From positions 1-48,991 of the forward strand of contig JBHGAY010000035.1 in assembly GCA_041946735.1 (NCBI GenBank): a DNA stretch of 48,991 nucleotides, written 5' to 3'. This stretch comes from Candidatus Eiseniibacteriota bacterium (GTDB taxonomy: Bacteria > Eisenbacteria > RBG-16-71-46 > CAIMUX01 > VGJL01). Positions 11,782 to 40,324 of this stretch are shown piece by piece. Positions within the stretch are counted from its first letter, which is position 1, and every line of letters begins with the position of its first letter. Made by a program: the position numbers and the translations under genes. A model generated the notes under the pieces. It worked only from the letters and a program-made list of their open reading frames with translations. It ran no database searches and was not told the DNA's origin.

Positions 11782-12468
11782 ATGAAGAAACGCCTGCTCT
11801 TCGCGAACGTGCTTCTTGCGCTCGTTCTCGCTGCGCTTCTAATCCCGTCCACTGCCGCCGCGTTCACCGGCTCGCTGACTAGCCCGATCGGCATCACCGG
11901 GACAGGCGCCTGGATCTTGACGGGACCGACCACGATCGAGTGGACCGTCACGCCAGTCGGATACTACTGGCACTACCACTACGAGCTCACCCATCCGCTC
12001 GGCAATACCAGCCACTTCATCTTCGAGGTTTCTCCGACCTTCGTGCTGACCGACATGTGGGGCTGGTCGGGCGATATCAAGACCGTCGACGGCGGTCCCT
12101 TTCTACAGGACTGGACGAGTCAGCAGGGGAATCCGGGCATGCCTGGGACCCTGCATGGAGTGAAGTTCAACGCGAGCGGCACTACGACAAACTCGATCTA
12201 CGACTTCTATAGTAGCCGGATGCCCGTCTGGGGCGACTTCTACGCGAAAGACGGAGATTCCGGGCAGCAGGGCACGGACACTGCCTGGAACGCGGGCTTC
12301 ACTGACGACGACGCGGATCCCGACGCTCCCGCCGCGGATGGATCGATCGACTATCACATCCTGGTCCCTGACACGCTCACTTCTGTCCCCGAGCCGGGCA
12401 CGGTTCTGCTGCTCGGCGTCGGCTTGCTTGGCGGCGAGCTGGTGAGGAGGCGCAGGAAGCGCGGCTGA
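11782..12468 (+). CDS. PEP-CTERM sorting domain-containing surface protein
   Basis: GGAGG RBS; signal peptide MKKRLLFANVLLALVLAALLIPSTAAA; C-terminal VPEPGTVLLLGVGLLGGELVRRRRKRG (PEP motif, TM helix, basic tail). Confidence 0.93.
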   Translation: MKKRLLFANVLLALVLAALLIPSTAAAFTGSLTSPIGITGTGAWILTGPTTIEWTVTPVGYYWHYHYELTHPLGNTSHFIFEVSPTFVLTDMWGWSGDIKTVDGGPFLQDWTSQQGNPGMPGTLHGVKFNASGTTTNSIYDFYSSRMPVWGDFYAKDGDSGQQGTDTAWNAGFTDDDADPDAPAADGSIDYHILVPDTLTSVPEPGTVLLLGVGLLGGELVRRRRKRG

Positions 12469-16045: not shown

Positions 16046-17337
16046 CTCCGCCGCGCGTCGACATGCGCCGGACCCTGGCGCTCCTGCTCGCCGGCGGCGA
16101 GGGAAGCCGCCTGAACTGCCTCGTCCACCGGCGCGCCAAGCCGGCCGTTCCCTTCGGAGCGATCTACCGGATCATCGACTTCGCGCTCTCCAACGTGATG
16201 CACTCCGGCCTCGAGCGCGTCGGGATCCTGACCCAGTACATGCCCTACAGCCTGTCCGATCACATCGGGACGGGCGAGTCGTGGGGGATGATCGGGCGCA
16301 ATCGCGAGGCACGGATCCTTCCGCCGCATCTCGGCCAGCGCGCCTCCGATTGGTATCGCGGCACGGCCGACGCGATCTATCGCAACCTCTCCTACATCGA
16401 CCGGTACAATTCCGACCTCTGCCTGATCCTCTCCGGCGACCACGTCTATCAGATGGACTATGCCCCGATGGTCGCCGAGCACATCCGCGCCGGCGCGGAC
16501 GCGACGATCGCGGTGCGCGAGATCCCGATCGAGGAGGCCTCGAGCTTCGGGACCGTCCTGGTCGATTCGACCGACCGGATCACCGGATTCGAGGAGAAGC
16601 CGGAGAAGCCTCGTAGCGGCTTGATCTCGATGGGGATCTATGTCTTCTCGCGCAAGGTGCTCGTGCGCGAGCTGGAAGAGATCGTCGGGCATCAAGGGCT
16701 GACCGACTTCGGCAAGCACATCTTTCCCGCGATGCTCGAGGAGGGCTGCCATCTCCAGGCGTTCCGCTTCCGCGGCTACTGGCAGGACGTCGGGACGATC
16801 CGCGCCTACTTCGAGAGCCACATGGAAATGCTCGCCCCGGACTCGCCGATCGACCTCGAACGCTGGCGCGTCCGGACGAACCGCAACGAGGAGACGCCGG
16901 GCGACCGGCAGCCGGCGCGCTTCGATCCCTCCGCGCACGTGGAGCGTTCGATCATCGCCGCCGGGACGCGGATCGCCGGCGACGTACGCAACAGCATCCT
17001 CTCCCCCGGCGTCGTCGTGGAGGCCGGCGCGGTCGTCGAGCGATCGGTCCTCATGCACGACACGCGCATCGGAGCGCGCGCCCACCTGCGCGATGCGATC
17101 CTGGACAAGCAGGTCGAGATCGGGCCCGAGGCGGTCGTGGGGGGCATCGGCGATATGGTCCCGAATCGCCGGTTCCCGACGCATCTCGACAGCGGCCAGG
17201 TGCTGATCGGCAAGGGGGCGCGGGTGCCGGCGGGCGCCGTCATCGAGCGCAACACGATCCTCTTCCCGGACGTCTCCATTCCGCGGACGGCCGGGACCGT
17301 CCATTCCGGAGAGACGATCGGCGATCTCGATCCCTGA
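16042..17337 (+). CDS. glgC: Glucose-1-phosphate adenylyltransferase (ADP-glucose pyrophosphorylase)
   Basis: ATGA overlap with the upstream gene. LAGGEGSRL...RAKPAVPFG.IYRIIDFALSN, WYRGTADAI, LILSGDH, FEEKP, DFGKHI.P and YWQDVGT. Confidence 0.95.
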   Translation: MTPPRVDMRRTLALLLAGGEGSRLNCLVHRRAKPAVPFGAIYRIIDFALSNVMHSGLERVGILTQYMPYSLSDHIGTGESWGMIGRNREARILPPHLGQRASDWYRGTADAIYRNLSYIDRYNSDLCLILSGDHVYQMDYAPMVAEHIRAGADATIAVREIPIEEASSFGTVLVDSTDRITGFEEKPEKPRSGLISMGIYVFSRKVLVRELEEIVGHQGLTDFGKHIFPAMLEEGCHLQAFRFRGYWQDVGTIRAYFESHMEMLAPDSPIDLERWRVRTNRNEETPGDRQPARFDPSAHVERSIIAAGTRIAGDVRNSILSPGVVVEAGAVVERSVLMHDTRIGARAHLRDAILDKQVEIGPEAVVGGIGDMVPNRRFPTHLDSGQVLIGKGARVPAGAVIERNTILFPDVSIPRTAGTVHSGETIGDLDP

Positions 17338-21559: not shown

Positions 21560-21637
21560 TGGCGGGGTCGACGGGGCTCGAACCCGCGACCTCCGGCTTG
21601 ACAGGCCGGCGTTCTAACCAAACTGAACTACGACCCC
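21560..21637 (-). tRNA. tRNA-Asp (GTC)
   Basis: GGGGTCG/CGACCCC acceptor stem, anticodon arm CCGGC-CTGTCAA-GCCGG, T-loop GGTTCGAG, G discriminator and encoded CCA. Confidence 0.97.
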
Positions 21638-25607: not shown

Positions 25608-26159
25608 ATGACAAAGAGACCCGTACGGATCGCAACGGCGAGGCGGACCCTCGTCGCAGCAGGCTCGAGGTCCGGCATCGCCGCTGCGCCGGTTCTCGAC
25701 GAAGCAGCGGTGTTGTTCCGCGGATATTTGCGAAAGCAGAAACTCCGCCTGACACGCGAGAGGATGGACCTCCTCCGAGCGGCACTGGGGGCGCCGAGCC
25801 ATTTCGACGCCGACGGCCTGGCCTCGTCCCTCCGCAAGCAGGGACGGAAGGTCAGCCGGGCGACCACCTACCGCACGCTGACCCTGCTCGAGCAATGCGG
25901 AATCCTCCGCAAGTCGCTCCAGCGCGAGGGGCGCAGCCTCTACGAGACGGCGCTCGACCGCGGCCATCACGACCACATCCTGTGTCTGTCGTGCGGCCGG
26001 ATCGAGGAGTTCTTCGACGAGCGCGTGGAGAAGCTGCAGGACGAGATCGCCTCCGGCCTCGGATTCCGCGTGGTCAACCACCTCCACGAGCTTCTCGGGT
26101 TCTGCGGCCAGTGCGCGCGGCGGGACAAGGCCGACGGCAAGGGGAAGGAGAAGAGTTGA
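25608..26159 (+). CDS. fur: Fur family transcriptional repressor
   Basis: LRLTRER, HFDAD, VSRATTYRTL, HHDHILCLSCG.IEEF, CGQC. Confidence 0.93.
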   Translation: MTKRPVRIATARRTLVAAGSRSGIAAAPVLDEAAVLFRGYLRKQKLRLTRERMDLLRAALGAPSHFDADGLASSLRKQGRKVSRATTYRTLTLLEQCGILRKSLQREGRSLYETALDRGHHDHILCLSCGRIEEFFDERVEKLQDEIASGLGFRVVNHLHELLGFCGQCARRDKADGKGKEKS

Positions 26160-28300
26160 GCTTGCGCCCGGATACGATTCCCGCTCTCGAGACCGGCCGC
26201 AAGTCTTCGCCCTCGCTCCTGCTCGTCGGAAACCCGAACGTCGGCAAGAGCGTGCTCTTCGGCGCGCTCACCGGGCGCTACGTGCAGGTATCGAACTATC
26301 CCGGGACAACCGTCGAGGTGACGCGCGGCACGATGACGGGCTCGCCCGAGCGGGTCGACGTGATCGACACGCCGGGCACGAACCACCTGATCCCGATGTC
26401 GGAGGACGAGCGGGTCACGCGCGACATCCTGCTCCGCGAGCCGGACGGCACGGTCGTCCAGGTCGGCGACGCGAAGAACCTGAGGCGGGTGCTGGCGCTG
26501 ACCATCGAGATCGCGCTGCTCGGGCGTCCCGCCGTCCTCGCGTTGAACATGATGGACGAGGCGCGCTCGCTCGGAGTGAGGATCGACCGGGAGCGTCTGT
26601 CGGCGCGTCTCGGGATTCCGGTCGTCGAAACGGTTGCGATCCGGGGCACCGGGCTTCGAGCGTTGCGGCAGGCGCCCGCTTCGGCGGCCGTCCCCCGCAT
26701 CGCTGCCCGCTATCCGGGCACCATCGAGCGGGCGATCGCGAGGATCGAGAAGGTCCTGCCGCCGACCGAAGTGCCCTCGCGCTTCCTCGCGATCCTCTTC
26801 CTGGCCGGCGACCCGACGATCCTGCCGTGGCTCCGGGAGCGCGCCGGGGCGGAACCTCTGAACGAGTGCGAGCGGATCCGGCTGGAGACGGCGCGGGCGA
26901 TCCCGGAACCGCTCTCACAAGCGATCCAGAAGGCGCACCTCGAAGCTGTCGACGAGGCGCTCGCCGAGTGCTACGTCGGCGCAACGCGCAAGCGCGGCGG
27001 CTGGACGCACCGCGTCGCCCGCTGGTCGGTCCATCCGATTCGGGGCCTCGGCATGCTCGCCGCTGTCCTCGCGCTCACCTTCTGGTTCGTCGGCCTGCTT
27101 GGCGCCGGGACGTTCGTCGATCTGATGGAGTCGGGCCTCTTCGGCCAGGTCCTGAGCCCGCTCGCGATCGAGGCGACCGACGCGGTGATGCCGTTTCCAC
27201 ACTCCCATCCGAAGGAAGAGGTTTCGGTCTCCCTCGAAGTCCCGCTCACGCCGGCCCATGGGCTCCCGACCGGACTCGCGTGGGGACGGCGGGTCGTGAC
27301 GCCCGCCTACGAGGTGACGGCGCCGCTCGGCGGCGCCCAGAAGGCGGCCCGCTTCGTCCACGACCTCGTCGTCGGGCCCTACGGCATCTTCACGATGGCG
27401 CTTGCGTACGGCTTCGCGATCGTGCTCCCGATCGTCTTTACCTTCTTCCTGCTCTTCTCCCTGCTGGAGGATTCGGGCTACCTTCCGCGCCTCGCGGTGA
27501 TGGTGAACGATCTATTCCGGGCGATGGGCTTGAACGGGCGCGCGGTCCTCCCGATGGTTCTCGGCCTGGGCTGCGATACGATGGCGACCCTGACGACGAG
27601 GATCCTCGACACGCGCAAGCAGCGCCTGATCGTGACGCTGCTGCTGGCGCTCGGCGTCCCCTGCTCCGCGCAGCTCGGGGTGCTGCTCGCCATGATGTCG
27701 GTCGTCTCTCCGGCCGGGACGATCGTCTGGCTCCTCGTGATGACCGGCGTGATGATCGCGGTCGGCTGGCTGGCGTCCAAGGTGATTCGTGGGCCCTCGT
27801 CGGACTTCCTCCTCGAGCTGCCGCCGATCCGCAAACCGGTCGTCTCGAACATCGCGATCAAGACGCTCGCGCGAATCGAGTGGTACCTCAAGGAAGTGAT
27901 CCCGCTCTTCGTGCTCGGGACCCTGGTGCTCTTTCTCCTCGACCGGACCGGCGCGCTGCCGCAGATCCGGAATCTGGGGGCGCCGATCGTGCAAGGATGG
28001 CTGCGGTTGCCGGCCGAAACGACCGATGCATTCCTGATCGGGTTCCTCCGGCGAGACTACGGCGCGGTGTTCCTGCTGCAGGCGGCGACCGGGGCGCATC
28101 CGATCCTGAACAACATCCAGGTGGTGACGAGCATGGTCGTGATCACGCTCTTCGTGCCGTGCATCGCCAACGTCTTCATCATCCTGAAGGAGCACGGGCT
28201 GAAGATCGCGCTGGCGATGGTGGCCTTCATCTTCCCGTTCGCCTTCCTGGTGGGAGGGATCTTGACCCGGCTGCTGGCCTTGCTGAAGGTTCCCGTATGA
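26156..28300 (+). CDS. feoB: Ferrous iron transporter FeoB
   Basis: GNPNVGKS, NYPGTTVE, DTPG, NMMD, LEDSGY.PR, GLGC, PCSAQ and LELP motifs. TTG start overlaps the fur stop. Confidence 0.96.
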   Translation: MSLRPDTIPALETGRKSSPSLLLVGNPNVGKSVLFGALTGRYVQVSNYPGTTVEVTRGTMTGSPERVDVIDTPGTNHLIPMSEDERVTRDILLREPDGTVVQVGDAKNLRRVLALTIEIALLGRPAVLALNMMDEARSLGVRIDRERLSARLGIPVVETVAIRGTGLRALRQAPASAAVPRIAARYPGTIERAIARIEKVLPPTEVPSRFLAILFLAGDPTILPWLRERAGAEPLNECERIRLETARAIPEPLSQAIQKAHLEAVDEALAECYVGATRKRGGWTHRVARWSVHPIRGLGMLAAVLALTFWFVGLLGAGTFVDLMESGLFGQVLSPLAIEATDAVMPFPHSHPKEEVSVSLEVPLTPAHGLPTGLAWGRRVVTPAYEVTAPLGGAQKAARFVHDLVVGPYGIFTMALAYGFAIVLPIVFTFFLLFSLLEDSGYLPRLAVMVNDLFRAMGLNGRAVLPMVLGLGCDTMATLTTRILDTRKQRLIVTLLLALGVPCSAQLGVLLAMMSVVSPAGTIVWLLVMTGVMIAVGWLASKVIRGPSSDFLLELPPIRKPVVSNIAIKTLARIEWYLKEVIPLFVLGTLVLFLLDRTGALPQIRNLGAPIVQGWLRLPAETTDAFLIGFLRRDYGAVFLLQAATGAHPILNNIQVVTSMVVITLFVPCIANVFIILKEHGLKIALAMVAFIFPFAFLVGGILTRLLALLKVPV

Positions 28301-28521
28301 CGCCGCCGGCCGGAGACCCTGCGACGGGCCGCGCCACTACGCTTTGCCCGCTTTGCGGCAAGGAGTTCCCGTCCGACCGGAGCGACTGCCACTCGGGATG
28401 CCCGATCGCCGGCCATTGCCGCGTTCTCTGCTGTCCCGGCTGTGGCTACGAGTTCGTCGAACACTCGGCGGTCGCGAGCGGTGTCGGAAAGGTCGTGCGA
28501 TGGATCCGGAGCCGGAAGTGA
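28297..28521 (+). CDS. Small cysteine-rich protein associated with feoB (74 aa)
   Basis: ATGA coupling to the feoB stop. CPLCG...DCHSGCPIAGHCRVLCCPGCGYEF, eight Cys in total. Confidence 0.8.
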   Translation: MTPPAGDPATGRATTLCPLCGKEFPSDRSDCHSGCPIAGHCRVLCCPGCGYEFVEHSAVASGVGKVVRWIRSRK

Positions 28522-28731
28522 GGCGGGGTCCGGAGCCGGAAGCGGGCCGGAGTCGAAGCTGGGGTCCGGGTCTGAGTCGAGGGTAGAGTCCGGGGCAGAG
28601 TCGAGGGCGAAGGGGGAGGTCGTCGGAATGCCGGAGAGGAACGCCGCCGAGAGGAACGCTGAGATGAATGCCGCCGAGAGGAATGCCGAGAGGAACGCCG
28701 AGATGAACGCTGAGATGAGGGCCGAGATGAT
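28500..28731. repeat. Degenerate ~12-bp tandem repeats across the intergenic region and the DtxR N-terminus (AERN/AEMN)
   Basis: TCCGGAGCCGGAAG twice, GAGTCGAGGG twice, then GCCGAGAGGAAC-like units about eight times. Confidence 0.7.
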
Positions 28732-29395
28732 GGCGCGCACCCGGGCGAAGGAACGCCTCGAAGAGGGGCTCGAGACGCTGTGGGTGCTGGTCGAGGAGGG
28801 ACGTCAAACCGTCGAGCAGTTCCGGACGGACTGCCCGGTCCCCGACTCCGCGTCGCTGGTCGAGGAGTTGCGGGAGGCCGGCCTGGTGGCGGTCGACGGC
28901 GGCAACCTCGCATTCACCGATGCGGGCTCCGCCCGCGCCGAAGGGGTCGTACGGCGCCATCGGCTCGCCGAGGTGCTCTTCCTCAAGGTGATGGAGTTGA
29001 GCGAGCAGGAGACGGAGGAGACCGCCTGCCTGATGGAGCACGTGCTGAGCGAGGAAGCGGCTGAGAAGGTTTGCTCCTTCCTGGGGCACCCGGTCCGTTG
29101 CCCGCACGGCCGCGCGATTCCGCCGGGGCGCTGCTGCGCCCTGCAGGACGGCGAGGAGAAAGTCCATCCGCTGTCCGAGATGCAGGTCGGCGACCTTTGC
29201 GAGGTCGTGCACATCCGACCGCGGCACCGCAACCGGCTCGACCGGCTGGGCGCTTACGGACTGCTGCCCCGTTCCCGCATCCGGCTGCACCAGAAGAAGC
29301 CGGCGTTCGTCATCCAGATCGACGAGACCGATCTGGCGCTCGACAGCGAGATCGCGCAGGACATCTACGTGCGCCGCTGCGAGCCGGCGGCCTGA
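28628..29395 (+). CDS. DtxR/MntR-family metal-dependent regulator with a C-terminal FeoA domain
   Basis: GGGGAGG RBS. RRHRLAE, ACLMEH and CPHG.AIPPG motifs. FeoA SH3-like domain PLSEM.VG...RL...GLLP...IDETDLALD.EIA..IYV. Confidence 0.9.
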   Translation: MPERNAAERNAEMNAAERNAERNAEMNAEMRAEMMARTRAKERLEEGLETLWVLVEEGRQTVEQFRTDCPVPDSASLVEELREAGLVAVDGGNLAFTDAGSARAEGVVRRHRLAEVLFLKVMELSEQETEETACLMEHVLSEEAAEKVCSFLGHPVRCPHGRAIPPGRCCALQDGEEKVHPLSEMQVGDLCEVVHIRPRHRNRLDRLGAYGLLPRSRIRLHQKKPAFVIQIDETDLALDSEIAQDIYVRRCEPAA

Positions 29396-29502: not shown

Positions 29503-30657
29503 TCAGTCGGCCGCCTCGATCGTCATGTCGTAATCGAGCCCCTCGCCCAGCCAGTATAGGCAGCCAACCTTCGCCGTCCCGTCGGCGGTGACCGCGAGAG
29601 TATCGCTCGTCACTTGCTCGTCGTGCGCCGTGACGCTCGATCGCTGCCCGCCCGGCTCGAGCAGGTAGATCCGCCGCGTCCCCTTGTAGACCTCCCCCGG
29701 ATCGATGCGGAAGATCAGGCTCTGACCCGCGACGACCGGCACCGCGTACCAGTCGGTGTCGAGATAGCAGCCGCGCAGTCCCGTGTGCTCCCCGAGCGAG
29801 ATCGGCGTGGCCATGTCCTCGAAGTCGTTGTCCTCGTACTCGTCGTCGGGACACGGCTCGCTCGTCTCGAGGATCAGGTCGTAGAGGACCAGGGGCTCCT
29901 CGTCGTAGCCCCAGATGTCGACCTCGTAGGTCCCCGGCAGGAACGTGTACGAGAAGCTCTCCGTCTCGCCCGTGTTCGCGGACGTCCCTAGAGTCGCGTA
30001 GTAGTCGTGCCCGTTCCCCCGCGACCAGTAGATCATCCAACTTTCGTCGTTCGCGTAGGCGATTGGAGTGCGGACCGTCACCCTCGCCGCGCTCTCGAGA
30101 GTGAAGCGGTAGGTGTCGACGTCGCCGAGGCAGGTGGCAAGGCCGAGATAGAGGGTATCGGGCTCGAGGACCGTCGCCGCCGAGGAGTCCTCGTTCGGCT
30201 CGAAGCGGTCCGCCAGGTGGTCGCAATCGTAGGGACCGGTCGTGACGATCAGGTCGAATGGGGCGGCGGCGTTTCCGGCCGAATCGGTCACGCCGGCCAC
30301 GTGCAGGGTCAAGCTCCGATCGGCGGGCAGGAGGCTGTCCGGCCAGACGGTGAGCATCCGGCCGGAAACGGACAGGACCCGCCGCGTCGGGACGATGGGA
30401 TCCCCGAGCGTGACGCTCTCCGCGCCCACGCTCGCAGGATCGAGCCCTTCGGAGAAGACCAGCGTGAAGCTCTGGAGCAGCGACACGCCGGAAGCGCCCT
30501 GAGCGGGATCGAAGGAGAGGAGCGCGGGGGGCGTCGTGTCGGCTGGAGGCGGTTCGGTCGACTTGCTGTCGTCTTCCGAGCAGGCGAGGAACACCAAGGC
30601 GGCTGCGATCCAGATCGCCGGCAGAACGGCGCGGGTGGAAACGAGAGATCGAGACAT
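29503..30657 (-). CDS. Lipoprotein with an Ig-like (Big_5) domain and two PPC-like, putatively Ca-binding modules
   Basis: Lipobox FLAC; DTTPP...F.E.LD..SV...VTD.AGN; repeated DRFEPNE / DEYEDND ... DxDxY motifs. Confidence 0.8.
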   Translation of the reverse strand: MSRSLVSTRAVLPAIWIAAALVFLACSEDDSKSTEPPPADTTPPALLSFDPAQGASGVSLLQSFTLVFSEGLDPASVGAESVTLGDPIVPTRRVLSVSGRMLTVWPDSLLPADRSLTLHVAGVTDSAGNAAAPFDLIVTTGPYDCDHLADRFEPNEDSSAATVLEPDTLYLGLATCLGDVDTYRFTLESAARVTVRTPIAYANDESWMIYWSRGNGHDYYATLGTSANTGETESFSYTFLPGTYEVDIWGYDEEPLVLYDLILETSEPCPDDEYEDNDFEDMATPISLGEHTGLRGCYLDTDWYAVPVVAGQSLIFRIDPGEVYKGTRRIYLLEPGGQRSSVTAHDEQVTSDTLAVTADGTAKVGCLYWLGEGLDYDMTIEAAD

Positions 30658-30857
30658 GCGGCCCTCCTGATTCGGGAAGGCGCAGCGGACCGGAGAGACC
30701 GGCCCCGGATCGGGTCGCGGCTCATGCGGCGAACGGACCTCCGCCGCCTTCCGCAGCGAGGCATCGCATCGCGGGGCCCGGCCGTCAAGGGGATCCGCGC
30801 GCGGGGCAGGATCCAGTGGCGCCGCGCCGTCTCGATCCGGTAGAGTCGAGAGCCGTG

Positions 30858-32162
30858 ATGCTGGGAAGCGGCGGGGAAAGACCGGACCGGAACGGCGCCC
30901 GACCACGGCGGGTCCGCGCGCGGCGCGCGATCGACTTGGCGCTGGCGGTCGGCCTTCTGCTCCTACTGTTCCTCCTGGTCCTCCCGGCCCTCCTCTCCCC
31001 GGGCGCAAGCGCGCAGCCGGCGGGTGAGGTCCGAGCCCCATCCGTGCAGCCCGTGTCCGATCTGTCGGTGGAGGACCGCCCTCTCGACGCGGGCCAGGTG
31101 CTGCGGGTCCGCTTCGGCCGGTCCCCGAGCGACACGGCGGGGCGGGTCGTCCGTTACGAGCTGCTGAGGCAGGGCCCGGGCGAGCCGGAGCCGGCCACGA
31201 TTCGGCACTTCTCCGCCCGCGTCCGCGAGAAGAGCTTCCGCTTCGACGACAGCGGGCTTTCCCCCGGCCGGTCCTACCTCTACGCGGTCCGGACGGTGGG
31301 CGCCGACAGCAGCGCGGCGACGACGCCGCTGCTCGGCCCGTTCGTCCCGACGCGCCAGTGGTTCTTCACGAACAAAGTGAACACGTTGATCGCGACGATC
31401 CTCTTCGTCGCCGCCATCCTGTACTTCATCCGCGCGGCGCGCGGTGGAAAGCCGCTCTTCATCCGGCGGATCGGCGGTCTCGACGCGATCGACGAGGCGG
31501 TGGGCCGCTGCACCGAAATGGGCAAGCCGACGCTCTACATTCCCGGTATCAGCACGATCGCCGACGTGGCGACAATCGCCTCGCTGAACATCCTGGGCCA
31601 GGTGGCGAAGCGGATCGCCACCTACCAGAGCCGCATCGTCGTCCCCAACCGCGACCCGATCGTCTACCCCGTCACCCAGGACGTCGTGAAGCTGGCCTTC
31701 CAGGAGGCAGGTTACGCAGACAACTACCGCCCGGAAGACGTCTACTTCGTCACGAACGATCAGTTCAGTTACGCCGCCGCCGTCTGCGGAACGATGGTGC
31801 GCGAGAAGCCGGGCGCGAACCTCCTCCTCGGGATGTTCTACGCCGAGTCGCTCGTCCTCGCGGAGACGGGCGCGTCGGTGGGCGCGATCCAGATCGCCGG
31901 GACGGACGCGATCTCGCAGCTGCCGTTCTTCGTGACCGCCTGCGACTACACAATCATCGGCGAAGAGCTGTACGCGGCGAGCGCATACATCAGCCGGGAG
32001 CCGACGCTGCTCGGGAGCTTGAAAGGGCAGGACGCCTACAAGGCGATCTCGATCGGCCTGATCGTGATCGGCGCGCTGCTGGCCACGATCGGCGTCATCG
32101 CGCGCGGCGCCCCCTACGACTGGATCGCGCAGATCCTCAAGGTCCGGGGAGTCGGCTCCTGA
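30858..32162 (+). CDS. Membrane protein with an N-terminal FN3-like domain and a DUF6754-like domain
   Basis: Signal peptide, FN3-like D.GL.PG.SY.Y.V, a TM helix, then IRRIGGLDAIDEAVGR.TEMG.P...G.FYAESL...ETG...GAIQIAGT...QLPFF...CDY.IIGEELYAASAY and a C-terminal TM. Family name is from recollection. Confidence 0.8.
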   Translation: MLGSGGERPDRNGARPRRVRARRAIDLALAVGLLLLLFLLVLPALLSPGASAQPAGEVRAPSVQPVSDLSVEDRPLDAGQVLRVRFGRSPSDTAGRVVRYELLRQGPGEPEPATIRHFSARVREKSFRFDDSGLSPGRSYLYAVRTVGADSSAATTPLLGPFVPTRQWFFTNKVNTLIATILFVAAILYFIRAARGGKPLFIRRIGGLDAIDEAVGRCTEMGKPTLYIPGISTIADVATIASLNILGQVAKRIATYQSRIVVPNRDPIVYPVTQDVVKLAFQEAGYADNYRPEDVYFVTNDQFSYAAAVCGTMVREKPGANLLLGMFYAESLVLAETGASVGAIQIAGTDAISQLPFFVTACDYTIIGEELYAASAYISREPTLLGSLKGQDAYKAISIGLIVIGALLATIGVIARGAPYDWIAQILKVRGVGS

Positions 32163-32180
32163 TGCGGGCGCGGCAGGATC

Positions 32181-32243
32181 GCGGAGCGGTGCGGCAAGCA
32201 CGCGGAGCGCCACGGCAAGCACGCGGAGCGGCACTGCAGGCGG
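32181..32243. repeat. 21-bp tandem repeat (x3) between the first two genes of the membrane operon
   Basis: GCGGAGCGGTGCGGCAAGCAC / GCGGAGCGCCACGGCAAGCAC / GCGGAGCGGCACTGCAGGCGG. Confidence 0.75.
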
Positions 32244-32280
32244 GACGAGGGTCGCGGCGGGCCTGCGGAGGGATCGCGAC

Positions 32281-32892
32281 ATGATGCGGCTGCAGGTGCC
32301 GCTCTTCATCTGCGCGGTCGCCGGGATCTTCATGGCGGTGCAGTATTTCGTTCCCGCGCTGCTGCCCGCCTACGACCGGATGAACGACTACCTGCAGATC
32401 GTCTACGCCTTCTCCATCGTCCTCGGCGTCGCCAGCGTTCTGCAGCGGCATGGGGGAAAGCTGCGCAAGCGCGCGAAGGACTGGCCGTACAGCGCAGCGG
32501 CGCTCGCCGCGATGGCGCTCATGATGGCCGCGCCGATCGCGGGCGGCCGCGGACCCGACTCGCTCTTCCAAAAGCTGTTCGACTCGATCCTCCTGCCGGT
32601 GCAGGCGACGATGTTCTCGCTTCTCGCCTTCTACCTCGCCTCGGCGGCGTTCCGGTCCTTCCGAACCCGGAGCCTCGACGCCACGGTCCTGCTCGTCTCG
32701 GCCGTGATCGTGATGATCGGGCGCCTCGACGCGGGCCAGGCGATCCACCTGCCCGACACGGCGCAGTGGATCTTGAACGTCCCGAACTTGGTCTCCAAGC
32801 GGGCGATCCTCCTCGGCGTCGGGCTCGGCATGGCCTCGACCGCGCTCAAGGTCGTTCTCGGGATCGAGCGATCCTATCTGGGGAGGGGATGA
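32281..32892 (+). CDS. Uncharacterised integral membrane protein (about 5-6 TM)
   Basis: Hydrophobic 203 aa. P.QATMFSLLAFY.ASAAFRSFR.R..DAT.LL and KRAI.LG.GLG motifs. Confidence 0.85.
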   Translation: MMRLQVPLFICAVAGIFMAVQYFVPALLPAYDRMNDYLQIVYAFSIVLGVASVLQRHGGKLRKRAKDWPYSAAALAAMALMMAAPIAGGRGPDSLFQKLFDSILLPVQATMFSLLAFYLASAAFRSFRTRSLDATVLLVSAVIVMIGRLDAGQAIHLPDTAQWILNVPNLVSKRAILLGVGLGMASTALKVVLGIERSYLGRG

Positions 32893-33740
32893 TGGGGCGC
32901 CTGCTCTCGATCCTCGAACGGCTCCAGAAGGTCGATCGCCGCTTGCTGTACACGCTGGTCTTCGTCGGCGTGACCCTGCCGTTCTACGTCGGCTGGCCTT
33001 CCGTCGACATCCAGGTTTCCCCGGAGGTCGAAGCGGCGTTCCAGACGATCGACGCGATTCCGCCACACTCCTATCCGCTTCTGATCTCCTTCGACTACGA
33101 TCCGGCGTCCGCGGCCGAGCTGACGCCGATGGCCGAGGCGGTGCTGCGCCATGCGTTCTCCCGGGGAATCCGTGTGCTCGCGATCAGCTTGCAGTACACC
33201 GGCCAGGGGGCCGGCATCGCGAGCCAGGTCCTCCCGAAGATCGCCGCGGAGTTCGGCGCGCAGAAGGACGTCGACTGGGCCTTCCTCGGCTTCCAGCCCA
33301 ACGCCCTCGTCGCGATGCTCCAGATGGGGGAGGACTTCCGGCGGACCTTCCCGGTCGACTACTACGGGACGCCGGTGGAGCAAATCCCGCTGATGCGCCC
33401 GATCCAGAACTACGATCAGATCCCGGCGGTCTTCTCGCTCGCCTCGACGGCGGTCGGCGAGTCCTGGGCGATCTATCCGGGATCGCGCTACAACCTGACC
33501 GTCCTGCTCGGTGTGACCGCCGTCTACACGGCCGACATCCAGCCGTTCTACCAGAGCGGCCAGGTGAGCGGGGTGCTCGGCGGATTGAAGGGGGCGGCCG
33601 AATACGAGAAGAGGATCGACCGGATCGCGGATGGCACGAACGGGATGCGCTCGCAGAAGCTCGTTCACTACATGATCATCGTGTTCATCGTGATCGGAAA
33701 CATCGGCTACTTCGCGATGCGAAGGGGGAAGCGCGCGTGA
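32889..33740 (+). CDS. Uncharacterised membrane protein: TM, globular domain, TM
   Basis: GGGAGG RBS and ATGA coupling. DRR + TM, ISFDYDP...ELTPMA...LRH, SGQ..GVLGGLKGAAEYE, C-terminal TM followed by RRGKRA. Confidence 0.85.
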   Translation: MMGRLLSILERLQKVDRRLLYTLVFVGVTLPFYVGWPSVDIQVSPEVEAAFQTIDAIPPHSYPLLISFDYDPASAAELTPMAEAVLRHAFSRGIRVLAISLQYTGQGAGIASQVLPKIAAEFGAQKDVDWAFLGFQPNALVAMLQMGEDFRRTFPVDYYGTPVEQIPLMRPIQNYDQIPAVFSLASTAVGESWAIYPGSRYNLTVLLGVTAVYTADIQPFYQSGQVSGVLGGLKGAAEYEKRIDRIADGTNGMRSQKLVHYMIIVFIVIGNIGYFAMRRGKRA

Positions 33741-34387
33741 GCACCGACGTCCTCTGGACGCTCCTCGCGGGGGCGATGACGCTCGCGATCTTCTCCTTCC
33801 TCTACCGGGACAACGCGCTCTACAAGCTGGCGGAGCACCTGTCGGTCGGCCTCTCGGTCGGCTTCCTCGTCGTCACCTACTTCAACAACGTCTTCCGTCC
33901 CAAGGTGTGGGACAACATCCTGGTCCGCGGCCAGCTCGACTACCTGATCCCGCTCTTCCTCGGGCTGATCCTCTTCACGCGGTTCATCCCGAAGGTCGGC
34001 TGGCTGTCGCGATGGGCGATCGCGTTCTACATCGGCGGTTTCTCGGGAGTCAGCATCCCTTCGACGATCGAAGGACGCGTGATCACGCAGACGGAGGCGA
34101 CGGTGCGCCCGCTTCTCACCGTTGCCGACTCGACGGCCGCCACGATCTGGGGATCGTTCAACGCGACCTTCCTCGTGGTCGGCACGCTCGCCTGCCTCGT
34201 CTTCTTCTTCTTCTCGATCGAGCACAAAGGGGCGGTCGGGCGCTTCGCCTACTTCGGGCGGCTCTGCATCATGGCGGGATTCGGCGCTTCGTTCGGCTAC
34301 ACGGTCATGGCTCGCGTCTCGCTCTTGATCGGCCGTGTGCAGTACCTGACGAGGGACGTTGTGGAGGCGATCGGCAGGGTTCTCTAG
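33737..34387 (+). CDS. Uncharacterised integral membrane protein (about 6 TM)
   Basis: GTGA coupling. TLAIFSFLYRDN.LYKLAEHL.VG and GR...M.GFGA.FGYTVMAR.SLLIGR motifs. Confidence 0.85.
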   Translation: MSTDVLWTLLAGAMTLAIFSFLYRDNALYKLAEHLSVGLSVGFLVVTYFNNVFRPKVWDNILVRGQLDYLIPLFLGLILFTRFIPKVGWLSRWAIAFYIGGFSGVSIPSTIEGRVITQTEATVRPLLTVADSTAATIWGSFNATFLVVGTLACLVFFFFSIEHKGAVGRFAYFGRLCIMAGFGASFGYTVMARVSLLIGRVQYLTRDVVEAIGRVL

Positions 34388-34403: not shown

Positions 34404-35897
34404 TCACGGGATCGCTTCGCGCCGCCGGCCGGTCCGCCGCCGCTTCTTCTTTCCGGCGCCCATGCCGAGCCGCTCCATCCGGTACCGGAACTGCCCGCGA
34501 CCCATGCCGAGCGAGGCGGCCGCGGCGCTGACGTTGCCGTGCGCGCGCTCCAGCGCCTGCTCGAGCGCCGCCTTCTCGATCGCATCGAAGCTGACGCCGT
34601 CGGGAACCTCGATCCGGATCTTCCCGCGGTCATGCGCGACCCGGACGACCGGCGCCGCCGCTCCGACGGAATCCGGAAGCGCCGCCGCGTCGATCGTCTC
34701 CGCGTCGCCCGAGAGGAGGATCAGGCGCTCGCACAGATTGACGACCTCCCGCACGTTGCCCGGCCAGGAGTGGCGCTCGAGCCTCTCGCGCGCGGCGGGC
34801 GTGAGGCGCGGGGCCGGACGCCCGCGACGCGCGGCAAACCGGTCGAGGTAGCGCTGCATCAGGAGCAGAGCATCCCCCGGTCTCTCGCGAAGCGAAGGGA
34901 TCCGCACCCGGATCACGTGCAGACGATGGAACAGGTCGCTGCGGAACCGGCCGGCGGCCGCCTCCTGCTCGAGGTCCTTCTGCGTGGCGGCGAGGATCCG
35001 GACGTCCACCTCCCGTTGCTCGATCCCCCCGACCCGCCGGAATTCCCCCGAGTCGAGGAACTTCAGGATCTTCGCCTGCACGGTCGCGTCGGTCTCTCCC
35101 ACCTCGTCGAGGAAGAAGCTCCCGGAGTCCGCCAGCTCGAGAAGTCCCGGCTTCGCGGACTGCGCGTGCGTGAACGCCCCCTTCTCGTGCCCGAAAAGCT
35201 CCGACTCGAGAAGACCGCCGGGAAGCGAGGCGCAGTTCACCTCGACGAACGGGCCGCCGGAGCGGGGGCTCTCTCGATGGATCGCCCGCGCGAAAATCCC
35301 TTTGCCGGTTCCGGTCTCCCCTTCGATCAAGACGACCGTGCTGGGACTCTGGGCGGCACGGCGAGCGAGATCGCAAGCCTCGCGGAACACCGGCGCCTGC
35401 CCGATCAGGTCGTCGAAGCTCGGGATCTCGTGGACGCGGCGGCGCTGGCGCTCGATCTCGGAGCGGCGCGTGCGGACCGCGCTGCGGAAGACGCGGCGCA
35501 GTTCGGGAATCGCGAGCGGGCGGAGAAACCAGTGGCGGACGCCGAGCCGGGCGAGCGCCGCCGGAACGGGCGCGTCGGGAGCGCTGGCGACGAGGAAGAG
35601 CTGGCACGAAGGGACCTGGCGTTTGAACGACTCGAGCCGTTCGGGAAGGATGGAGCGCAGGGTGAGATCGGCCAGCAGCCAGTCGGGACGGATCGTCGAG
35701 GAGTCGGCCTCGCTTGCCCTCGATCCCGCCGCCTCGCCTCCACTCGCCTCGGAAAGCTCCGTCAGGGTTCGGATCTGCACCCCGAGCCCCTCGACGCTCG
35801 TCGCGACCGTCGTGATCAGATAGGGATCGTCGCTGAGGATCCAGAGACCGGGGACGTCGAGTCCGGAGGACCCGGGCGCTCGGGGCGGATCAGCCAA
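34404..35897 (-). CDS. Sigma54-dependent transcriptional activator with an atypical receiver domain
   Basis: GETGTGK, ESELFGHEKGAFTHA, FLDEVGE, FRSDLFHRL, WPGNVRE and a Fis-type HTH. The N-terminus is REC-like (LSDD, WLLAD, FLRP). Confidence 0.93.
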   Translation of the reverse strand: MADPPRAPGSSGLDVPGLWILSDDPYLITTVATSVEGLGVQIRTLTELSEASGGEAAGSRASEADSSTIRPDWLLADLTLRSILPERLESFKRQVPSCQLFLVASAPDAPVPAALARLGVRHWFLRPLAIPELRRVFRSAVRTRRSEIERQRRRVHEIPSFDDLIGQAPVFREACDLARRAAQSPSTVVLIEGETGTGKGIFARAIHRESPRSGGPFVEVNCASLPGGLLESELFGHEKGAFTHAQSAKPGLLELADSGSFFLDEVGETDATVQAKILKFLDSGEFRRVGGIEQREVDVRILAATQKDLEQEAAAGRFRSDLFHRLHVIRVRIPSLRERPGDALLLMQRYLDRFAARRGRPAPRLTPAARERLERHSWPGNVREVVNLCERLILLSGDAETIDAAALPDSVGAAAPVVRVAHDRGKIRIEVPDGVSFDAIEKAALEQALERAHGNVSAAAASLGMGRGQFRYRMERLGMGAGKKKRRRTGRRREAIP

Positions 35898-36621
35898 CGT
35901 CCGGACCTCGCGACACGCGCACGCGCGCGCGCCGGAGGATCTGATCCTTGTAGAGGTAGCCCCGCTGCAGCGTCTCGAGGATCCTCCCTTCCGGTTGCTC
36001 GTCGGACGGGCTGGTCAAGAGCGCCTCGTGCTCGTGCGGATCGAAGACCGTCCCCGGGCCGCTCGGCTGCTCTCGCAGCCCGACCGCCCGAAGATAGTCC
36101 GCCAGCCGCGCGAGAATCAGCAGGAAACCTTCGCTGTGCGGATCGGGGGAGCGTTCCGCCTCGACCGCGGCCCGCGCCCGATCGAGATCATCGAGCACGG
36201 GAAGCATTCCGGCGAGCAGGTCGCCCTTTGCGCGGGTCTCCCATTCCGCGCGCTCCTTCTGGATCCTCTTGCGGAAGTTGGCGAACTCGGCCTGCAGGCG
36301 GCGGAGCTGGTCGAGCAGCTCGGCGGCTTCGTCCTTCGATGTGGTCTCCGCGCCCGGCTCCTCGGTCACCACTCGCTCCCCCTTGCTCCCGGCTTCCTCG
36401 ATCCCCTGCCCTCTCTCGGCCTCCGACTCCGTCGGCGGCGAATCCGGCTGCGGCGGCCGATCCTCATCGCCCCGGGACGATCCTCCCTCGCCGGCCCTGC
36501 CCGATGAAGGATCGTCGGGCTGGAGGTGGCCATTCGGCTTCCGCGGCTCCTCGAACGAGCCGCTCTCTCGGGAGCCGGGACGGTTCGACCGGTCGCGCTC
36601 GCCGCCGTCACCCTTTCGCAT
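35890..36621 (-). CDS. grpE: Nucleotide exchange factor GrpE
   Basis: RLQAEFANFRKR, LPVLDDLDRA, FDPHEHEAL, LQRGY...ILRRARVRVS. Confidence 0.96.
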   Translation of the reverse strand: MRKGDGGERDRSNRPGSRESGSFEEPRKPNGHLQPDDPSSGRAGEGGSSRGDEDRPPQPDSPPTESEAERGQGIEEAGSKGERVVTEEPGAETTSKDEAAELLDQLRRLQAEFANFRKRIQKERAEWETRAKGDLLAGMLPVLDDLDRARAAVEAERSPDPHSEGFLLILARLADYLRAVGLREQPSGPGTVFDPHEHEALLTSPSDEQPEGRILETLQRGYLYKDQILRRARVRVSRGPDVG

Positions 36622-37036
36622 CGGGTTCTCCGGGCGGCGGCTCCGTCGGGGTGGTCCCGGGGGGCGATTCGGATCCCGCCGGTTTCGTCGCCGATGCTGC
36701 GCTCGCGTCCTTCTCGCCCTCCGAGGCGCGATCCGGGGACGACTCGGCCGCGCCTTCGTCGGGACGGCCCGCCTCGTCGACGAAGTTCAACCGGAGGTTC
36801 GTCAGCACGTGCGCGAGGTAGCGGTTCTCATCCTCGCTCAGATTGCCCCGGGTCTTCTCTTCCAGCATCCCGAGGATGTCGATCACGAACCGCGCGGCAT
36901 CCAGATTGCGCTCGTTCTTCCCGCTCTCCGGGTGCGCGATCTTCCCCATGTAGATCATCGCGGTGAATTGCTGCTGCGCGACGAAGTAGTGGAACAGCTC
37001 CGAGGAGCTCGCCGCGGTCTCGTCCCGGTCTGCCAT
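36608..37036 (-). CDS. DUF1844 domain protein
   Basis: AMIYMGKI.HP.SG...NLDAARFVID.LGMLEEKTRGNLS.DE...L...LT.LRLNFV. Confidence 0.88.
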   Translation of the reverse strand: MADRDETAASSSELFHYFVAQQQFTAMIYMGKIAHPESGKNERNLDAARFVIDILGMLEEKTRGNLSEDENRYLAHVLTNLRLNFVDEAGRPDEGAAESSPDRASEGEKDASAASATKPAGSESPPGTTPTEPPPGEPDAKG

Positions 37037-37049
37037 CCCAGCCCCCCTC

Positions 37050-39029
37050 TCAGCTCGTCTTGTCGTCGTCCACTACCTCGTAGTCCGCCTCCACGGGGCC
37101 TTCGCCCCCGCCGCCGCCGGCCGCGCCGCCGCCCGAAGCTCCGCCGCCCTGCGGTCCTCCGCCCGGGCCGCCCGCTCCGCCGGCGCCGCCGCCGGGGCCA
37201 GATCCCGGGCCCGCGCCCGACGTCGCTCCCGCCTTCTTGTACATCGCGGTGGCCAGCTCGTGCATCTCCTTCTGCAGCGCGTCGGTGGCCGACCGGATCG
37301 CTCCGATCTCGTCCGCCTTGGCAGCGTCACGGAGCCGGCCGATCGCCGACTCGATGCGGCCCCTCTGATCGGAGTCGACCTTGTCGCCCCACTCCTTCAG
37401 ATTCTTCTCCGTCTCGTAGGCGAGGTTCTCGGCCTGGTTGCGGGCGTCGATCAGCTCGCGGCGCTTCTTGTCCTCCGCCGCATGCTGCTCGGCCTCCCTC
37501 ACCATCCGCTGCACCTCGCTCTCGTTGAGGCCCGAGCGCGCCTCGATGCGGATCGACTGCTCGCGGCCGGTCGCCATGTCCTTCGCCGAGACCTTCAAGA
37601 TCCCGTTCGCGTCGATGTCGAACGTGACCTCGATCTGCGGCAGGCCGCGCGGCGCCGGTGGGAGCCCGGTCAGCTGAAAACGGCCGAGAGACTTGTTGTC
37701 CGACGCCATTTCCCGCTCTCCCTGCAGCACGTGGATCTCGACCATCGTCTGGTTGTCGGCTGCGGTCGAGAACACCTGGCTCTTGCGGGTGGGGATCGTC
37801 GTGTTGCGCTCGATCAGCTTCGTGCTGACCCCGCCGAGAGTCTCGATCCCGAGCGAGAGGGGGGTGACGTCGAGGAGCAGCACGTCCTTGACCTCGCCGG
37901 CCAGGACGCCTCCCTGGATCGCCGCGCCCATCGCCACGACCTCGTCCGGGTTGACCCCCTTGTGCGGATCCCGCTTGAAGAGCTGCTTCACGAGCTCCTG
38001 AACCTTCGGGATGCGCGTCGAGCCGCCGACCAGGATCACCTCGTCGATGTCGGTCGCCGAGAGGCCGGCGTCGCGCAGCGCTTGCTCGCACGGCCCCACG
38101 GTCCGCTGGATCAGATCATCGATCAGCTGCTCGAGCTTCGAGCGGGTCAGGCTGACGGTCAGGTGCTTCGGCCCCGACTGGTCGGCGGTGATGTAGGGGA
38201 GGTTGATCTCGGTCTGCAGGGTCGTCGACAGCTCGATCTTCGCCTTCTCCGCAGCCTCGCGCAGGCGCTGGAGCGCCATCGGATCGCTCCGCAGGTCGAA
38301 CCCGTTGCTCTTCTTGAACTCGTCGGCGAGCCAATCGATGATCCGCTGGTCGAAGTCGTCGCCGCCCAGGTGGGTGTCACCGTTCGTCGACTTGACTTCG
38401 AAGACCCCTTCGCCAAGCTCGAGGATCGAGATATCGAACGTGCCGCCCCCCAGGTCGTAGACGGCGACCTTCTCGTCCTTCTTCGACTTGTCGAGGCCGT
38501 AGGCAAGCGCCGCCGCCGTCGGCTCGTTGATGATGCGCTTCACGTCGAGGCCGGCGATCTTCCCCGCGTCTTTCGTCGCCTGGCGCTGCGAATCGTTGAA
38601 GTATGCCGGGACGGTCACGACCGCCTCGGTCACCTTTTCGCCGAGATAGTCCTCCGCGGTCTGGCGCATCTTCTGGAGGATCATCGCGGAGATCTCCGGC
38701 GGCGAATAGACGCGGTCATCGATCTTCACGCGCGCATCGCCATTGTCGCCCCGGACCACCTCGTAGGGGACCTCTCGCATCTCGGTGGCCACCTCGTCGT
38801 ACTTGCGGCCCATGAACCGCTTGATCGAGTAGACGGTATTCTTCGGATTCGTGACCGCCTGGCGCTTCGCCGCCGCGCCCACGATCTTCTCTCCGTCCTT
38901 CTTGAAGGCGACGACCGAGGGGGTCGTCCGCGCGCCCTCCGAGTTCGGGATGACGGTGGGCTCGTTGCCCTCCATGACCGCGACGCAGGAGTTCGTCGTC
39001 CCCAGGTCGATCCCGATGATCTTGCCCAT
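37050..39029 (-). CDS. dnaK: Molecular chaperone DnaK
   Basis: [41 protein letters not shown], Gly-rich tail and EADYEVV. Confidence 0.99.
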
Positions 39030-39193
39030 CCTCTTCTCCTTTCCGGGAGCCGCTTCCTCTGTCTTCCTCGTCTCTTGCTTTCTTCTCTTTTTCTTCTCTT
39101 CTATCGCTCGACCGCTTCTGTCGCCTGTCTCTTCCTTCACCCTCTCTGTTCTCTTCTTTGCAGGGTAGTCCTATGGCGTTGCGAGGGAGACGG

Positions 39194-39208
39194 GCAAAAT
39201 CCACGCCA
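39194..39208 (-). promoter_or_regulatory. Sigma54 (-24/-12) promoter of the dnaK operon
   Basis: Minus-strand TGGCGTGGATTTTGC, matching TGGCRnn-N4-TTGC, 165 bp upstream of the dnaK ATG. Confidence 0.75.
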
Positions 39209-39331
39209 GAAGGCGAGCCGCAGCGCAATTCCGTTCGTGCTGGTTAGTCTTTGCGCAAGATCGTGTTACGGCTTCCTGGCCTCGACGTCGGCGCACAGCC
39301 GGCAGGATCCGTTGCGCGACGGAACCCGAGC

Positions 39332-39352
39332 GCCGTTTCAGTCTGAAACGGC
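39332..39352. promoter_or_regulatory. Candidate bEBP enhancer (UAS) palindrome
   Basis: Perfect 10-bp inverted repeat GCCGTTTCAG-T-CTGAAACGGC, about 125-145 bp upstream of the -24 element. Confidence 0.6.
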
Positions 39353-40324
39353 AGTGATCCCGTATCGGCGCATCTTGCGCCACAAGGTCGTGCGCGAGAC
39401 GCCAAGCGTGCGGGCGGTCTTGGTCAGGCTGCCGCCTTCGTGGCGCAAGGTCCGCCGGATGTAGCGCGCCTCGACCTCCTGCAGGCTCAGCCCATCGGGG
39501 ATCGACTCCTCCTCGCCCGAGCCGAGCCGCGGAAGCCCACGCTCGACGATCTCCGGAGGCAGGTCGCGAGGCAGAATCATCGGGCCGTCGGTGACGATCA
39601 CAGCGTGCTCGACCGCATTCTCCAGCTCGCGGACGTTTCCCGGCCAATCGTAGTTCGTCAGATAGCCCCACGTTTGATCGCTGAAGCCGGCCACCTCGGA
39701 CTCGTAGCGCTCGGTGAAATTGCGGAGGAAGTAGCGGGCGAGGAAGGGGATCTCCTCCTTCCGCTCCCGGAGCGGCGGCAGGTGGATGCGGAAGACGTTG
39801 AGCCGATAGAAGAGGTCTTCGCGAAAGCGGCCGGCACGCATCGCCTCGCGCAAGTCCGCGTTGGTCGCCGCAAGCACCCGAACGTCGACGCGCAGCGGGC
39901 TGTCCGATCCCACCGGGCGGATCTCCCGGTCCTGCAGGACGCGCAGGAGCTTCACCTGCACGCTCGGCGCCATCTCCCCGATCTCGTCGAGGAAGATGGT
40001 CCCCTTGTCGGCCATCTCGAAGAGACCGCGCCGCCGGTCGCGCGCATCGGTGAAGGCGCCACGCACGTGGCCGAACAGCTCGCTCTCGATCAGCGTCTCG
40101 GGGATCGCGGAGGCGTTCACCGCGACGAACGCCTGTCCCGCGCGACGGCTCTGGAGGTGGATGACGCGGGCGATCTTCTCCTTGCCCGTCCCGCTCTCCC
40201 CGGTGATGAGGACGGTCGACTCGGTGGGCGCGATCCGGTCGACCAGGTGCAGCACGCGCTTCATCGAGTCGGAAACGCTGATGATCTGCTCGCGCTGGCT
40301 CCCGCGGCCGCGGACCGACGTCAC
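39338..40324 (-). CDS. Sigma54-dependent activator lacking an N-terminal sensor domain (AAA+ and HTH only)
   Basis: GESGTGKE about 40 aa from the start, ESELFGHVRGAFTDA, FLDEIGE, FREDLFYRL, WPGNVRELEN and HTH LGVSRTTLWRK. GTGA-coupled to lysS. Confidence 0.93.
   Translation of the reverse strand: MTSVRGRGSQREQIISVSDSMKRVLHLVDRIAPTESTVLITGESGTGKEKIARVIHLQSRRAGQAFVAVNASAIPETLIESELFGHVRGAFTDARDRRRGLFEMADKGTIFLDEIGEMAPSVQVKLLRVLQDREIRPVGSDSPLRVDVRVLAATNADLREAMRAGRFREDLFYRLNVFRIHLPPLRERKEEIPFLARYFLRNFTERYESEVAGFSDQTWGYLTNYDWPGNVRELENAVEHAVIVTDGPMILPRDLPPEIVERGLPRLGSGEEESIPDGLSLQEVEARYIRRTLRHEGGSLTKTARTLGVSRTTLWRKMRRYGITAVSD

Follow-up and report, generated by a model that had tools for sequence, protein, structure and literature searches.

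What do four adjacent membrane-protein genes do when three of them match no named family and the fourth belongs to a family without a function? This question is raised by positions 30858-34387 of a 48,991-nucleotide stretch of DNA from a Candidatus Eiseniibacteriota bacterium (assembly GCA_041946735.1, contig JBHGAY010000035.1, positions 1 to 48,991), the whole of which we refer to as the window. We find that these genes, here called g1 to g4, form a cassette that is a real, conserved membrane system, apparently undescribed, whose function we infer. On our best reading, the window cassette is a satellite of a machine that is linked to an ATPase encoded on another contig. The cassette has the following layout, with lengths in amino acids (aa) and transmembrane helices (TMs) as predicted.

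30858-32162, + strand: g1, 434 aa (start codon uncertain, alternatives at 30816 and 30936); signal-like N-terminus, FN3-like outer arm, TM, cytoplasmic Rossmann-like alpha/beta domain (DUF6754), TM
31107..31307, + strand: outer domain of g1 resembling FN3 (fn3 E 0.077, sub-threshold), which may be absent or repeated
31350..32096, + strand: DUF6754 match of g1, including a juxtamembrane helix (g1 residues ~203-222), the proposed ATPase-docking element
32163..32280, no strand: g1-g2 spacer, 118 bp, with imperfect repeats of ~21 bp
32281..32892, + strand: g2, 203 aa; six predicted TMs, N-in/C-in; no named family
32889..33740, + strand: g3, 283 aa; TM, outer Rossmann-like alpha/beta domain, TM; no named family
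33737..34387, + strand: g4, 216 aa; six predicted TMs, N-out/C-out; no named family

Each of the four genes scored as coding under a codon model that was trained partly on g1-g4 themselves. A previous sequence-only reading of this DNA had described them as co-oriented with the last three overlapping, and the g2/g3 ATGA and g3/g4 GTGA overlaps are indeed present. It had also likened g1 to DUF6754, a resemblance that is borne out by a match to PF20539 of 376.6 bits (gathering cut-off 27) over profile positions 2-250 of 257. For g2, g3 and g4, no Pfam or NCBIfam match exceeded its cut-off, and the closest titled relatives are from Candidatus Eisenbacteria. The g1-stop/g2-start word is duplicated over 8 bp so that copies flank the g1-g2 spacer, and a 40-codon frame that spans the spacer from the g1 stop to the g2 start scores as non-coding; the corresponding gap in close relatives measures a few to ~50 bp, and the spacer is probably a lineage-specific insertion. 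Searches for sigma-70 promoters and terminators gave no match, a search of RNA runs listed no RNA holder, and g1 matched nothing among plasmids.

The organization of these genes extends well beyond the window. The genome (G000) contains six complete copies on six different contigs, all in the order g1-g2-g3-g4. The fetched loci held 152 g1 matches; 39 with less than 2.7 kb of downstream sequence were dropped, and at 109 of the remaining 113 scorable loci g2-g3-g4 follow g1. The fixed four-gene cassette is thus real and far beyond chance, because a single genome contains six complete copies and the order is fixed elsewhere. The four other loci hold lone g1 genes (L066 138-917, L072 6589-7368, L120 8986-9744 and L055 7235-8023) that retain the conserved juxtamembrane helix and could swap outer arms into other modules. 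Three frames of 982-1031 codons and three more over DUF6754, found in GC-rich genomes, were considered as g1 fusions and rejected, since on reading they resembled normal g1 genes preceded by open but non-coding sequence.

In metagenome loci, two or three cassettes often stand in tandem. Within the phylum, DUF6754 and g4 are each found in the same 91 of 101 genomes at 1-9 copies per genome. Relatives of named origin, known from their individual records, belong to WOR-3, TA06, Bacillota, Xenobia, Cloacimonetes, Zixibacteria, Planctomycetota and Chloroflexota; the planctomycete set includes the cultured Thalassoglobus and Planctomicrobium, and g2 relatives are present among cultured Planctomycetes. 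The subunits diverge at different rates. Mean identity among the six paralogs is 51% for g1 and 38% for g3, the most variable subunit (3140 clusters at 50% identity), and across 107 cassettes at least 90% conservation is reached by 69 of 254 columns in the inner g1 domain versus 31 of 282 in the outer g3 domain. The four genes have correlated identity matrices (rho 0.35-0.57) and share their nearest neighbor in 56 of the 107, a pattern that is explained by kinship and therefore not counted as co-evolution.

We observe that the cassette has a constant partner. The sequence-only reading rightly saw no ATPase gene inside the cassette itself and concluded from this that the system is a self-contained, ATP-independent transporter. 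That conclusion fails: the cassette co-occurs near-perfectly with a GlmL-like ATPase and a second protein, X, and g1 has decayed where this pair was lost. One contig of the genome (C11) reads gcvT-H-PA-PB, Y, Z, GlmL/MutL-like ATPase, X, cassette, where Y has two TMs, Z is ~110 aa, the ATPase is 635 aa and X is 373 aa. The ATPase is an actin-fold, GlmL/MutL-like protein (PF13941, 397 bits) that also weakly matches Hydantoinase_A (E 3e-4) and BcrAD_BadFG (E 0.013), and its phosphate-loop/ATP-site motifs are invariant in 28 sequences. X shows weak matches to barrel-sandwich-hybrid domains and to RnfC_N/NQRA_N, and has no invariant His or Lys. Sequence searches of the PDB with the ATPase and X returned nothing significant, the best rows for X being biotin carboxylase, RraA and Spt5 KOW at E 0.15-0.44.

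The genome has six cassettes to one ATPase, and X, Y and Z are likewise single-copy. The ATPase and X each occur in 90 of the 101 phylum genomes; they are present in 90 of the 91 that have a cassette, almost always as a single strong copy, and absent from all 10 that have none, the one exception being genome G084, discussed below. In one family (f5, n=89, a sample that overlaps the 101 genomes), 78 assemblies encode both DUF6754 and PF13941, 6 encode neither and 5 are discordant, 4 of these being only 65-88% complete. Sixteen genomes with a single cassette were fetched, and in 15 of them X is part of the 10-16 kb locus; in one case the cassette is on the opposite strand. The window copy falls in a clade of 10 (support 1.0), and no member of it adjoins ATPase genes. 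We regard a link between the cassette and the ATPase pair as highly probable.

Of 31 loci with the ATPase, 27 also have Z, and Y and Z, both without a Pfam family, recur upstream of it in 18 and 27 loci, respectively (for example L058 7948-8879, minus strand). Other recurring neighbor clusters are gcvP (22 loci), a lipoate-ligase-like gene (19), peptide ATP-binding cassette (ABC) binding-protein (16) and permease (15) genes and an OPT gene (4); PAS kinase or sigma-54 regulator clusters reach only 5-6 loci each, and a PorV-like cluster 4. There is also a diverged second form, an ATPase-X fusion of 865-898 aa that was borne out at all 4 of the loci inspected (L140 5144-7783, L141 4200-6806, L142 3151-5748 and L143 1322-4018), in genomes that also keep the split pair, and no cassette gene was found within the 7-13 kb fetched around these fusions. 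Similar fusion signals appear in 7 of the 101 genomes, and the stand-alone fusion is possibly a second engine.

A genome that lost the pair provides a view of where the ATPase may act. In G084 (98% complete), a 1.16-Mb contig (C10, locus L155) carries gcvP-Z-g1-g2-g3-g4-ligase, with Y, the ATPase and X absent at the locus and the latter two not found elsewhere in the genome. It is the sole near-complete genome we saw that has a cassette but lacks the ATPase, X and Y, with Z kept. Its g1 departs from consensus at 7 of 50 near-invariant sites (among the 107 other cassettes the median is 0 and the highest count 4), and 5 of the 7 lost residues fall within positions 205-222 of the window g1, whereas g2-g4 depart at 1 of 71 conserved sites. 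Lineage-specific changes, counted against the congener G047, which keeps the ATPase pair, number 61 versus 9 in g1 (p 1.3e-10), spread across the first 225 residues of the g1 domain, with 22 versus 12 in g3 and 24 versus 18 in g2. Changes in gcvPA, gcvPB, the LplA ligase and a binding protein are balanced between the two genomes. Since g1 evolved fast in G084 and the flanking genes did not, we propose its cytoplasmic domain as the docking site. The ATPase pair thus seems to constrain the conserved inner domain of g1, which may be where it docks.

The proposal that g1 and g3 share a layout is supported by their structural models (predicted local distance difference test 88.4 and 96.8, respectively), both of which run TM, helix, six beta-alpha units, long TM helix, that is, TM-(beta/alpha)6-TM. 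The best matches in a wide structural search had Z 9.4 for g3 (root-mean-square deviation 3.7 over 140 residues) and Z 10.2 for g1 (3.3 over 146), and the g1 and g3 domains have many generic fold matches in common, among them 1kjn, RCK/KTN domains and domain III of transhydrogenase. Foldseek with g3 and g1 gave nothing at E 0.001, PDB sequence searches with g3, g2 and g4 gave nothing significant, and the ESM Atlas linked g2 to unnamed clusters only and g4 to no usable named match. Common ancestry of g1 and g3 is plausible. The claim that g1/g3 and g2/g4 form inverted pairs stands in part: opposite orientation is supported, and sequence homology is not, with profile-profile probabilities of at most 8.9% for g1/g3, 6.8% and 0.7% for g2/g4 and nothing found by BLASTP within either pair. 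Prediction of the g1-g4 complex with g3 as partner scored 0.66, with 0.00 for two partner-swap controls and 0.63 for a control in which g1 was replaced, and is not used either way.

Evidence for orientation comes from charge bias and from natural inserts. Family-averaged hydropathy and lysine/arginine bias place the g1 domain inside, the g3 domain outside and both g3 termini inside; together with the inserts, they agree with the predicted cytoplasmic and periplasmic locations that the sequence-only reading had assigned to the two domains. One relative (P0154) carries a CARDB-bearing insert within its g3 domain. Of 333 long g2 forms found, 120 were listed, and in every one of these the TM3-TM4 loop holds the insert, which in some includes FG-GAP or WD40 domains; g2 is therefore read as N-in. 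The TM4-TM5 loop carries inserts in 45 of 76 long g4 forms, and 22 of the 76 are extended at the N-terminus; the two extensions inspected start with an extra TM, so that g4 is read as N-out. Seven of the 76 are g3-g4 fusions, of which we inspected six: in two, an extra linking TM fits this topology, three resemble joins made by a frameshift, and the last (P0355), which lacks an extra TM, departs from the scheme unless a stop was lost. In five planctomycete g2 forms (P0431, P0445, P0451, P0464 and P0499) the outer insert measures ~400 aa, and the two that were scanned gave no Pfam match. The FN3 domain had been seen as a substrate-capture arm; an essential role is not supported, as the 258-aa g1 of one paralog (contig C71) has no FN3 and the outer arm ranges from 0 to ~700 aa, with repeats in long forms and fn3 over cut-off in one relative (P0100). 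Conserved charged residues lie at helix ends and not mid-membrane, and the inner domain of g1 contains many invariant acidic and amide residues.

Drawing on these features, we tentatively propose that the cassette is an interchangeable inner-membrane module of an ATP-driven importer that shares one ATPase-X energizer. The parts of this proposal differ in strength, the link to the pair being highly probable and import having about an even chance of being the job of the system, and as a whole it therefore falls a little below even. In this scheme, a single GlmL-like actin-fold ATPase and X, encoded on another contig, would power all six modules. g3, with its variable outer arms, is likely ligand-facing and would bind solute on the outer side, g2 and g4 would form the solute path, and g1 would act as the coupling subunit that docks the ATPase pair through its inner domain, with ATP turnover by the docked pair resetting the cycle. 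The cargo would differ from paralog to paralog, amino-acid or peptide-derived nutrients being the most plausible. This cargo assignment is a guess from the peptide ABC, OPT, peptidase and glycine-cleavage neighbors, which are largely a product of one phylum's gene order. A bolder formulation, to which we give somewhat less credence, is that an actin/Hsp70-fold ATPase and a barrel-sandwich partner drive exchangeable, pseudo-symmetric four-subunit modules through DUF6754 docking and so represent an unrecognized class of primary active transporter. Such a class, to be held just as provisionally, would be neither an ABC, P-type nor rotary system nor an AAA motor.

Several results weigh against this proposal. 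Co-occurrence was counted within one phylum, whose related genomes are not independent; the peptide-transporter and gcv neighbors mostly reflect the gene order of that phylum and are therefore not independent either, and satellite copies have unrelated neighbors. The G084 evidence comes from one genome, in which g4 also evolved faster (22 versus 7 changes, p 0.008), and since g2-g4 stayed nearly intact there without the ATPase, the core may work without ATP, or the loss may be recent. No subunit matches a known transporter by sequence in Pfam, NCBIfam or the PDB, and the fold matches of the g1 and g3 soluble domains are only generic Rossmann-like, with no known transporter domain prominent. 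All four subunits tolerate very large outer inserts, which would also suit receptors.

How do other explanations fare against the same evidence? A self-sufficient pseudo-symmetric secondary transporter or channel with g1+g2 and g3+g4 halves, in which the ATPase pair is only a regulator or gate, would account for the opposing orientations within each pair, the element order common to the g1 and g3 models, the existence of g3-g4 fusions, the RCK/KTN gating domains among the generic fold matches and the conservation of g2-g4 in G084. We nonetheless regard it as unlikely, given that the pair is present in 90 of 91 cassette genomes, that no homology was found within the pairs and that conserved charges sit at helix ends. 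The diverse outer inserts (FG-GAP, WD40, CARDB and FN3 repeats), the variable outer and conserved inner faces and the many modules per single ATPase pair could also describe a receptor family in which g3 and its variable arms sense an outside ligand and signal through g1 to one cytoplasmic ATPase switch. This is a slightly weaker candidate still: no DNA-binding, kinase or cyclase gene is a conserved neighbor, the PAS kinase and sigma-54 clusters being confined to 5-6 loci each, and 16 predicted TMs would seem to exceed what a simple receptor needs.

The pair could instead perform chemistry. The actin fold includes sugar kinases, and the weak Hydantoinase_A and BcrAD_BadFG matches and the invariant acidic and amide residues of the g1 inner domain would fit a GlmL-like protein and X that phosphorylate or hydrolyze the incoming solute without mechanically driving the membrane cycle. 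One enzyme would then have to serve up to nine divergent modules, and X lacks an invariant His or Lys carrier, so that we consider this improbable, as we do its variants, group translocation or a hydantoinase/oxoprolinase-like step. Slightly less probable still is an envelope machine that uses the FN3 arm as a stalk in the periplasm and serves export, protein insertion or the generation of force. Actin-fold ATPases do serve in pilus and division assemblies (PilM, FtsA), the arm reaches ~700 aa and a PorV-like cluster adjoins 4 loci, but no outer-membrane gene is a constant neighbor, named relatives come from Bacillota and Chloroflexota, and any such machine is dispensable because 10 of the 101 genomes lack the cassette. 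Least probable, to a degree that makes it a marginal reading, is the handling of cobalamin or lipoate for B12 mutases or the adjacent glycine cleavage system. The core operon does lie between gcvT-H-PA-PB and a lipoate-ligase-like gene, and true MutL/GlmL is described (PMC4682846) as a reactivating chaperone for glutamate mutase. G084, however, keeps gcv and the ligase without the ATPase, glutamate mutase E exceeds its cut-off in 0 of 101 genomes, the ATPase scores below the GlmL, Or-4 and TIGR01319 cut-offs and X has no invariant Lys. The only B12-binding match in the genome reads, by eye, as a mutase small subunit beside a MeaB-like GTPase, and an Rfam scan found no element at the six cassette loci, riboswitches included. 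We thus retain the shared-energizer importer as the preferred explanation.

The remainder of the window adds little to the functional assignment. The sequence-only reading had placed the cassette among many secreted peptidases, which overstates the case; the window contains two.

17.5-20.2 kb: M14 secreted peptidase
45.2-47.6 kb: S8 secreted peptidase

Both are more than 10 kb away and the peptidase context is therefore weak; intramembrane M50 and rhomboid proteases are present as well. Upstream, positions 25710-29395 (plus strand) hold a single run of genes for Fur, FeoB and a DtxR-like repressor; the repressor contains a FeoA domain and has short AERNAEMN-type repeats at its N-terminus. A link to these iron genes was rejected, as they are seen at only 2-3 loci of close relatives and other orthologous loci have different neighbors. 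A lipoprotein-like gene with Big_5 and PPC domains (29503-30657, minus strand) is divergent from g1 across ~200 bp and is not a recurring neighbor of the cassette. Downstream (34404-40324, minus strand), two sigma-54-type activators flank dnaK, DUF1844 and grpE; the nearer converges on g4 across a 16-bp gap without a terminator-like site. Farther away are a PEP-CTERM protein (11782-12468, plus strand), in a genome that also has FlgD_ig-tailed secreted proteins and thus two sorting signals, two tandem GlgC-like nucleotidyltransferase genes (14846-17337, plus strand) and a tRNA gene (21563-21637, minus strand; Rfam 72.6 bits). At two related loci (L149 and L150), sequence resembling GlgC-like genes directly precedes an arm-less g1.

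The system is common, with about 90% of the sampled phylum carrying it and up to nine modules per genome. Current annotation misses it, labeling the ATPase as a glutamate-mutase helper and the remainder as hypothetical, and metabolic reconstructions of the carrier lineages would accordingly miss an uptake or sensing route. We know of no solute transporter that is energized by an actin-fold ATPase, and the proposal, if true, would define a major uptake route in many uncultured lineages. The presence of g2 relatives in cultured Planctomycetes and the docking surface named by G084 make the idea directly testable.

A comparison with described systems shows where this one differs. DUF6754 (PF20539), of which g1 is a full member, is a family without a function and covers neither g2-g4 nor the link to an ATPase. 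A literature search that reached few subscription papers found no paper on the system or naming DUF6754. RnfA/RnfE and NqrD/NqrE offer a likeness to g2 and g4 as two six-TM proteins of ~200 aa in opposite orientation. These proteins have conserved intramembrane cysteines for an iron-sulfur center. No Cys column reached 50% in 90 g2 and 100 g4 sequences, the g2 match to Rnf-Nqr is weak (E 4e-4, 20.9 bits against a cut-off of 23.8), 2 of 53 g2 members and no g4 member match at E 0.05, and no flavin or iron-sulfur subunit gene occurs among the neighbor clusters scanned. With the Pfam match below cut-off and no conserved Cys, an RnfA/E identity for g2 and g4 was rejected.

The ATPase on contig C11 has the domain and ATP-site motifs of the GlmL/MutL, Or-4 family (PF13941) but falls below the NCBIfam cut-offs of NF040745, NF040744 and TIGR01319 (204/475, 193/600 and 159/204 bits). 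Glutamate mutase E (PF06368) gave 5 weak matches among the 101 genomes and none over cut-off, though the control was also weak (1 of 14), and ornithine/lysine aminomutase (PF09043) was found in 0 of 101 with a profile that is silent in controls as well. A mutase-accessory identity was rejected on the sub-threshold scores and the lack of glutamate mutase E over cut-off. Unlike the reactivating chaperone described for MutL/GlmL proper (PMC4682846), this ATPase has ~160 extra C-terminal residues, a fixed and sometimes fused partner in X and an accompanying membrane cassette.

The closest functional parallel is to energy-coupling factor (ECF) transporters, in which a shared EcfAA'T energizer serves exchangeable S-components (PMC7755397, PMC4820897). 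S-components are recognized by AXXXA in helix 1 (PMC11109136). No S-component Pfam family matched 53 g2 and 53 g4 members at E 0.05, although one g2 relative (P0451) carries an automatic "ECF transporter S component" label. No EcfA or EcfT cluster is among the recurring neighbors scanned, where the constant partner is PF13941 plus X. The likeness is thus an analogy in how the systems work, with one ATP-using module and several membrane modules. Unlike in ECF transporters, the ATPase here is of the actin fold and not an ABC protein, and the exchangeable unit consists of four proteins.

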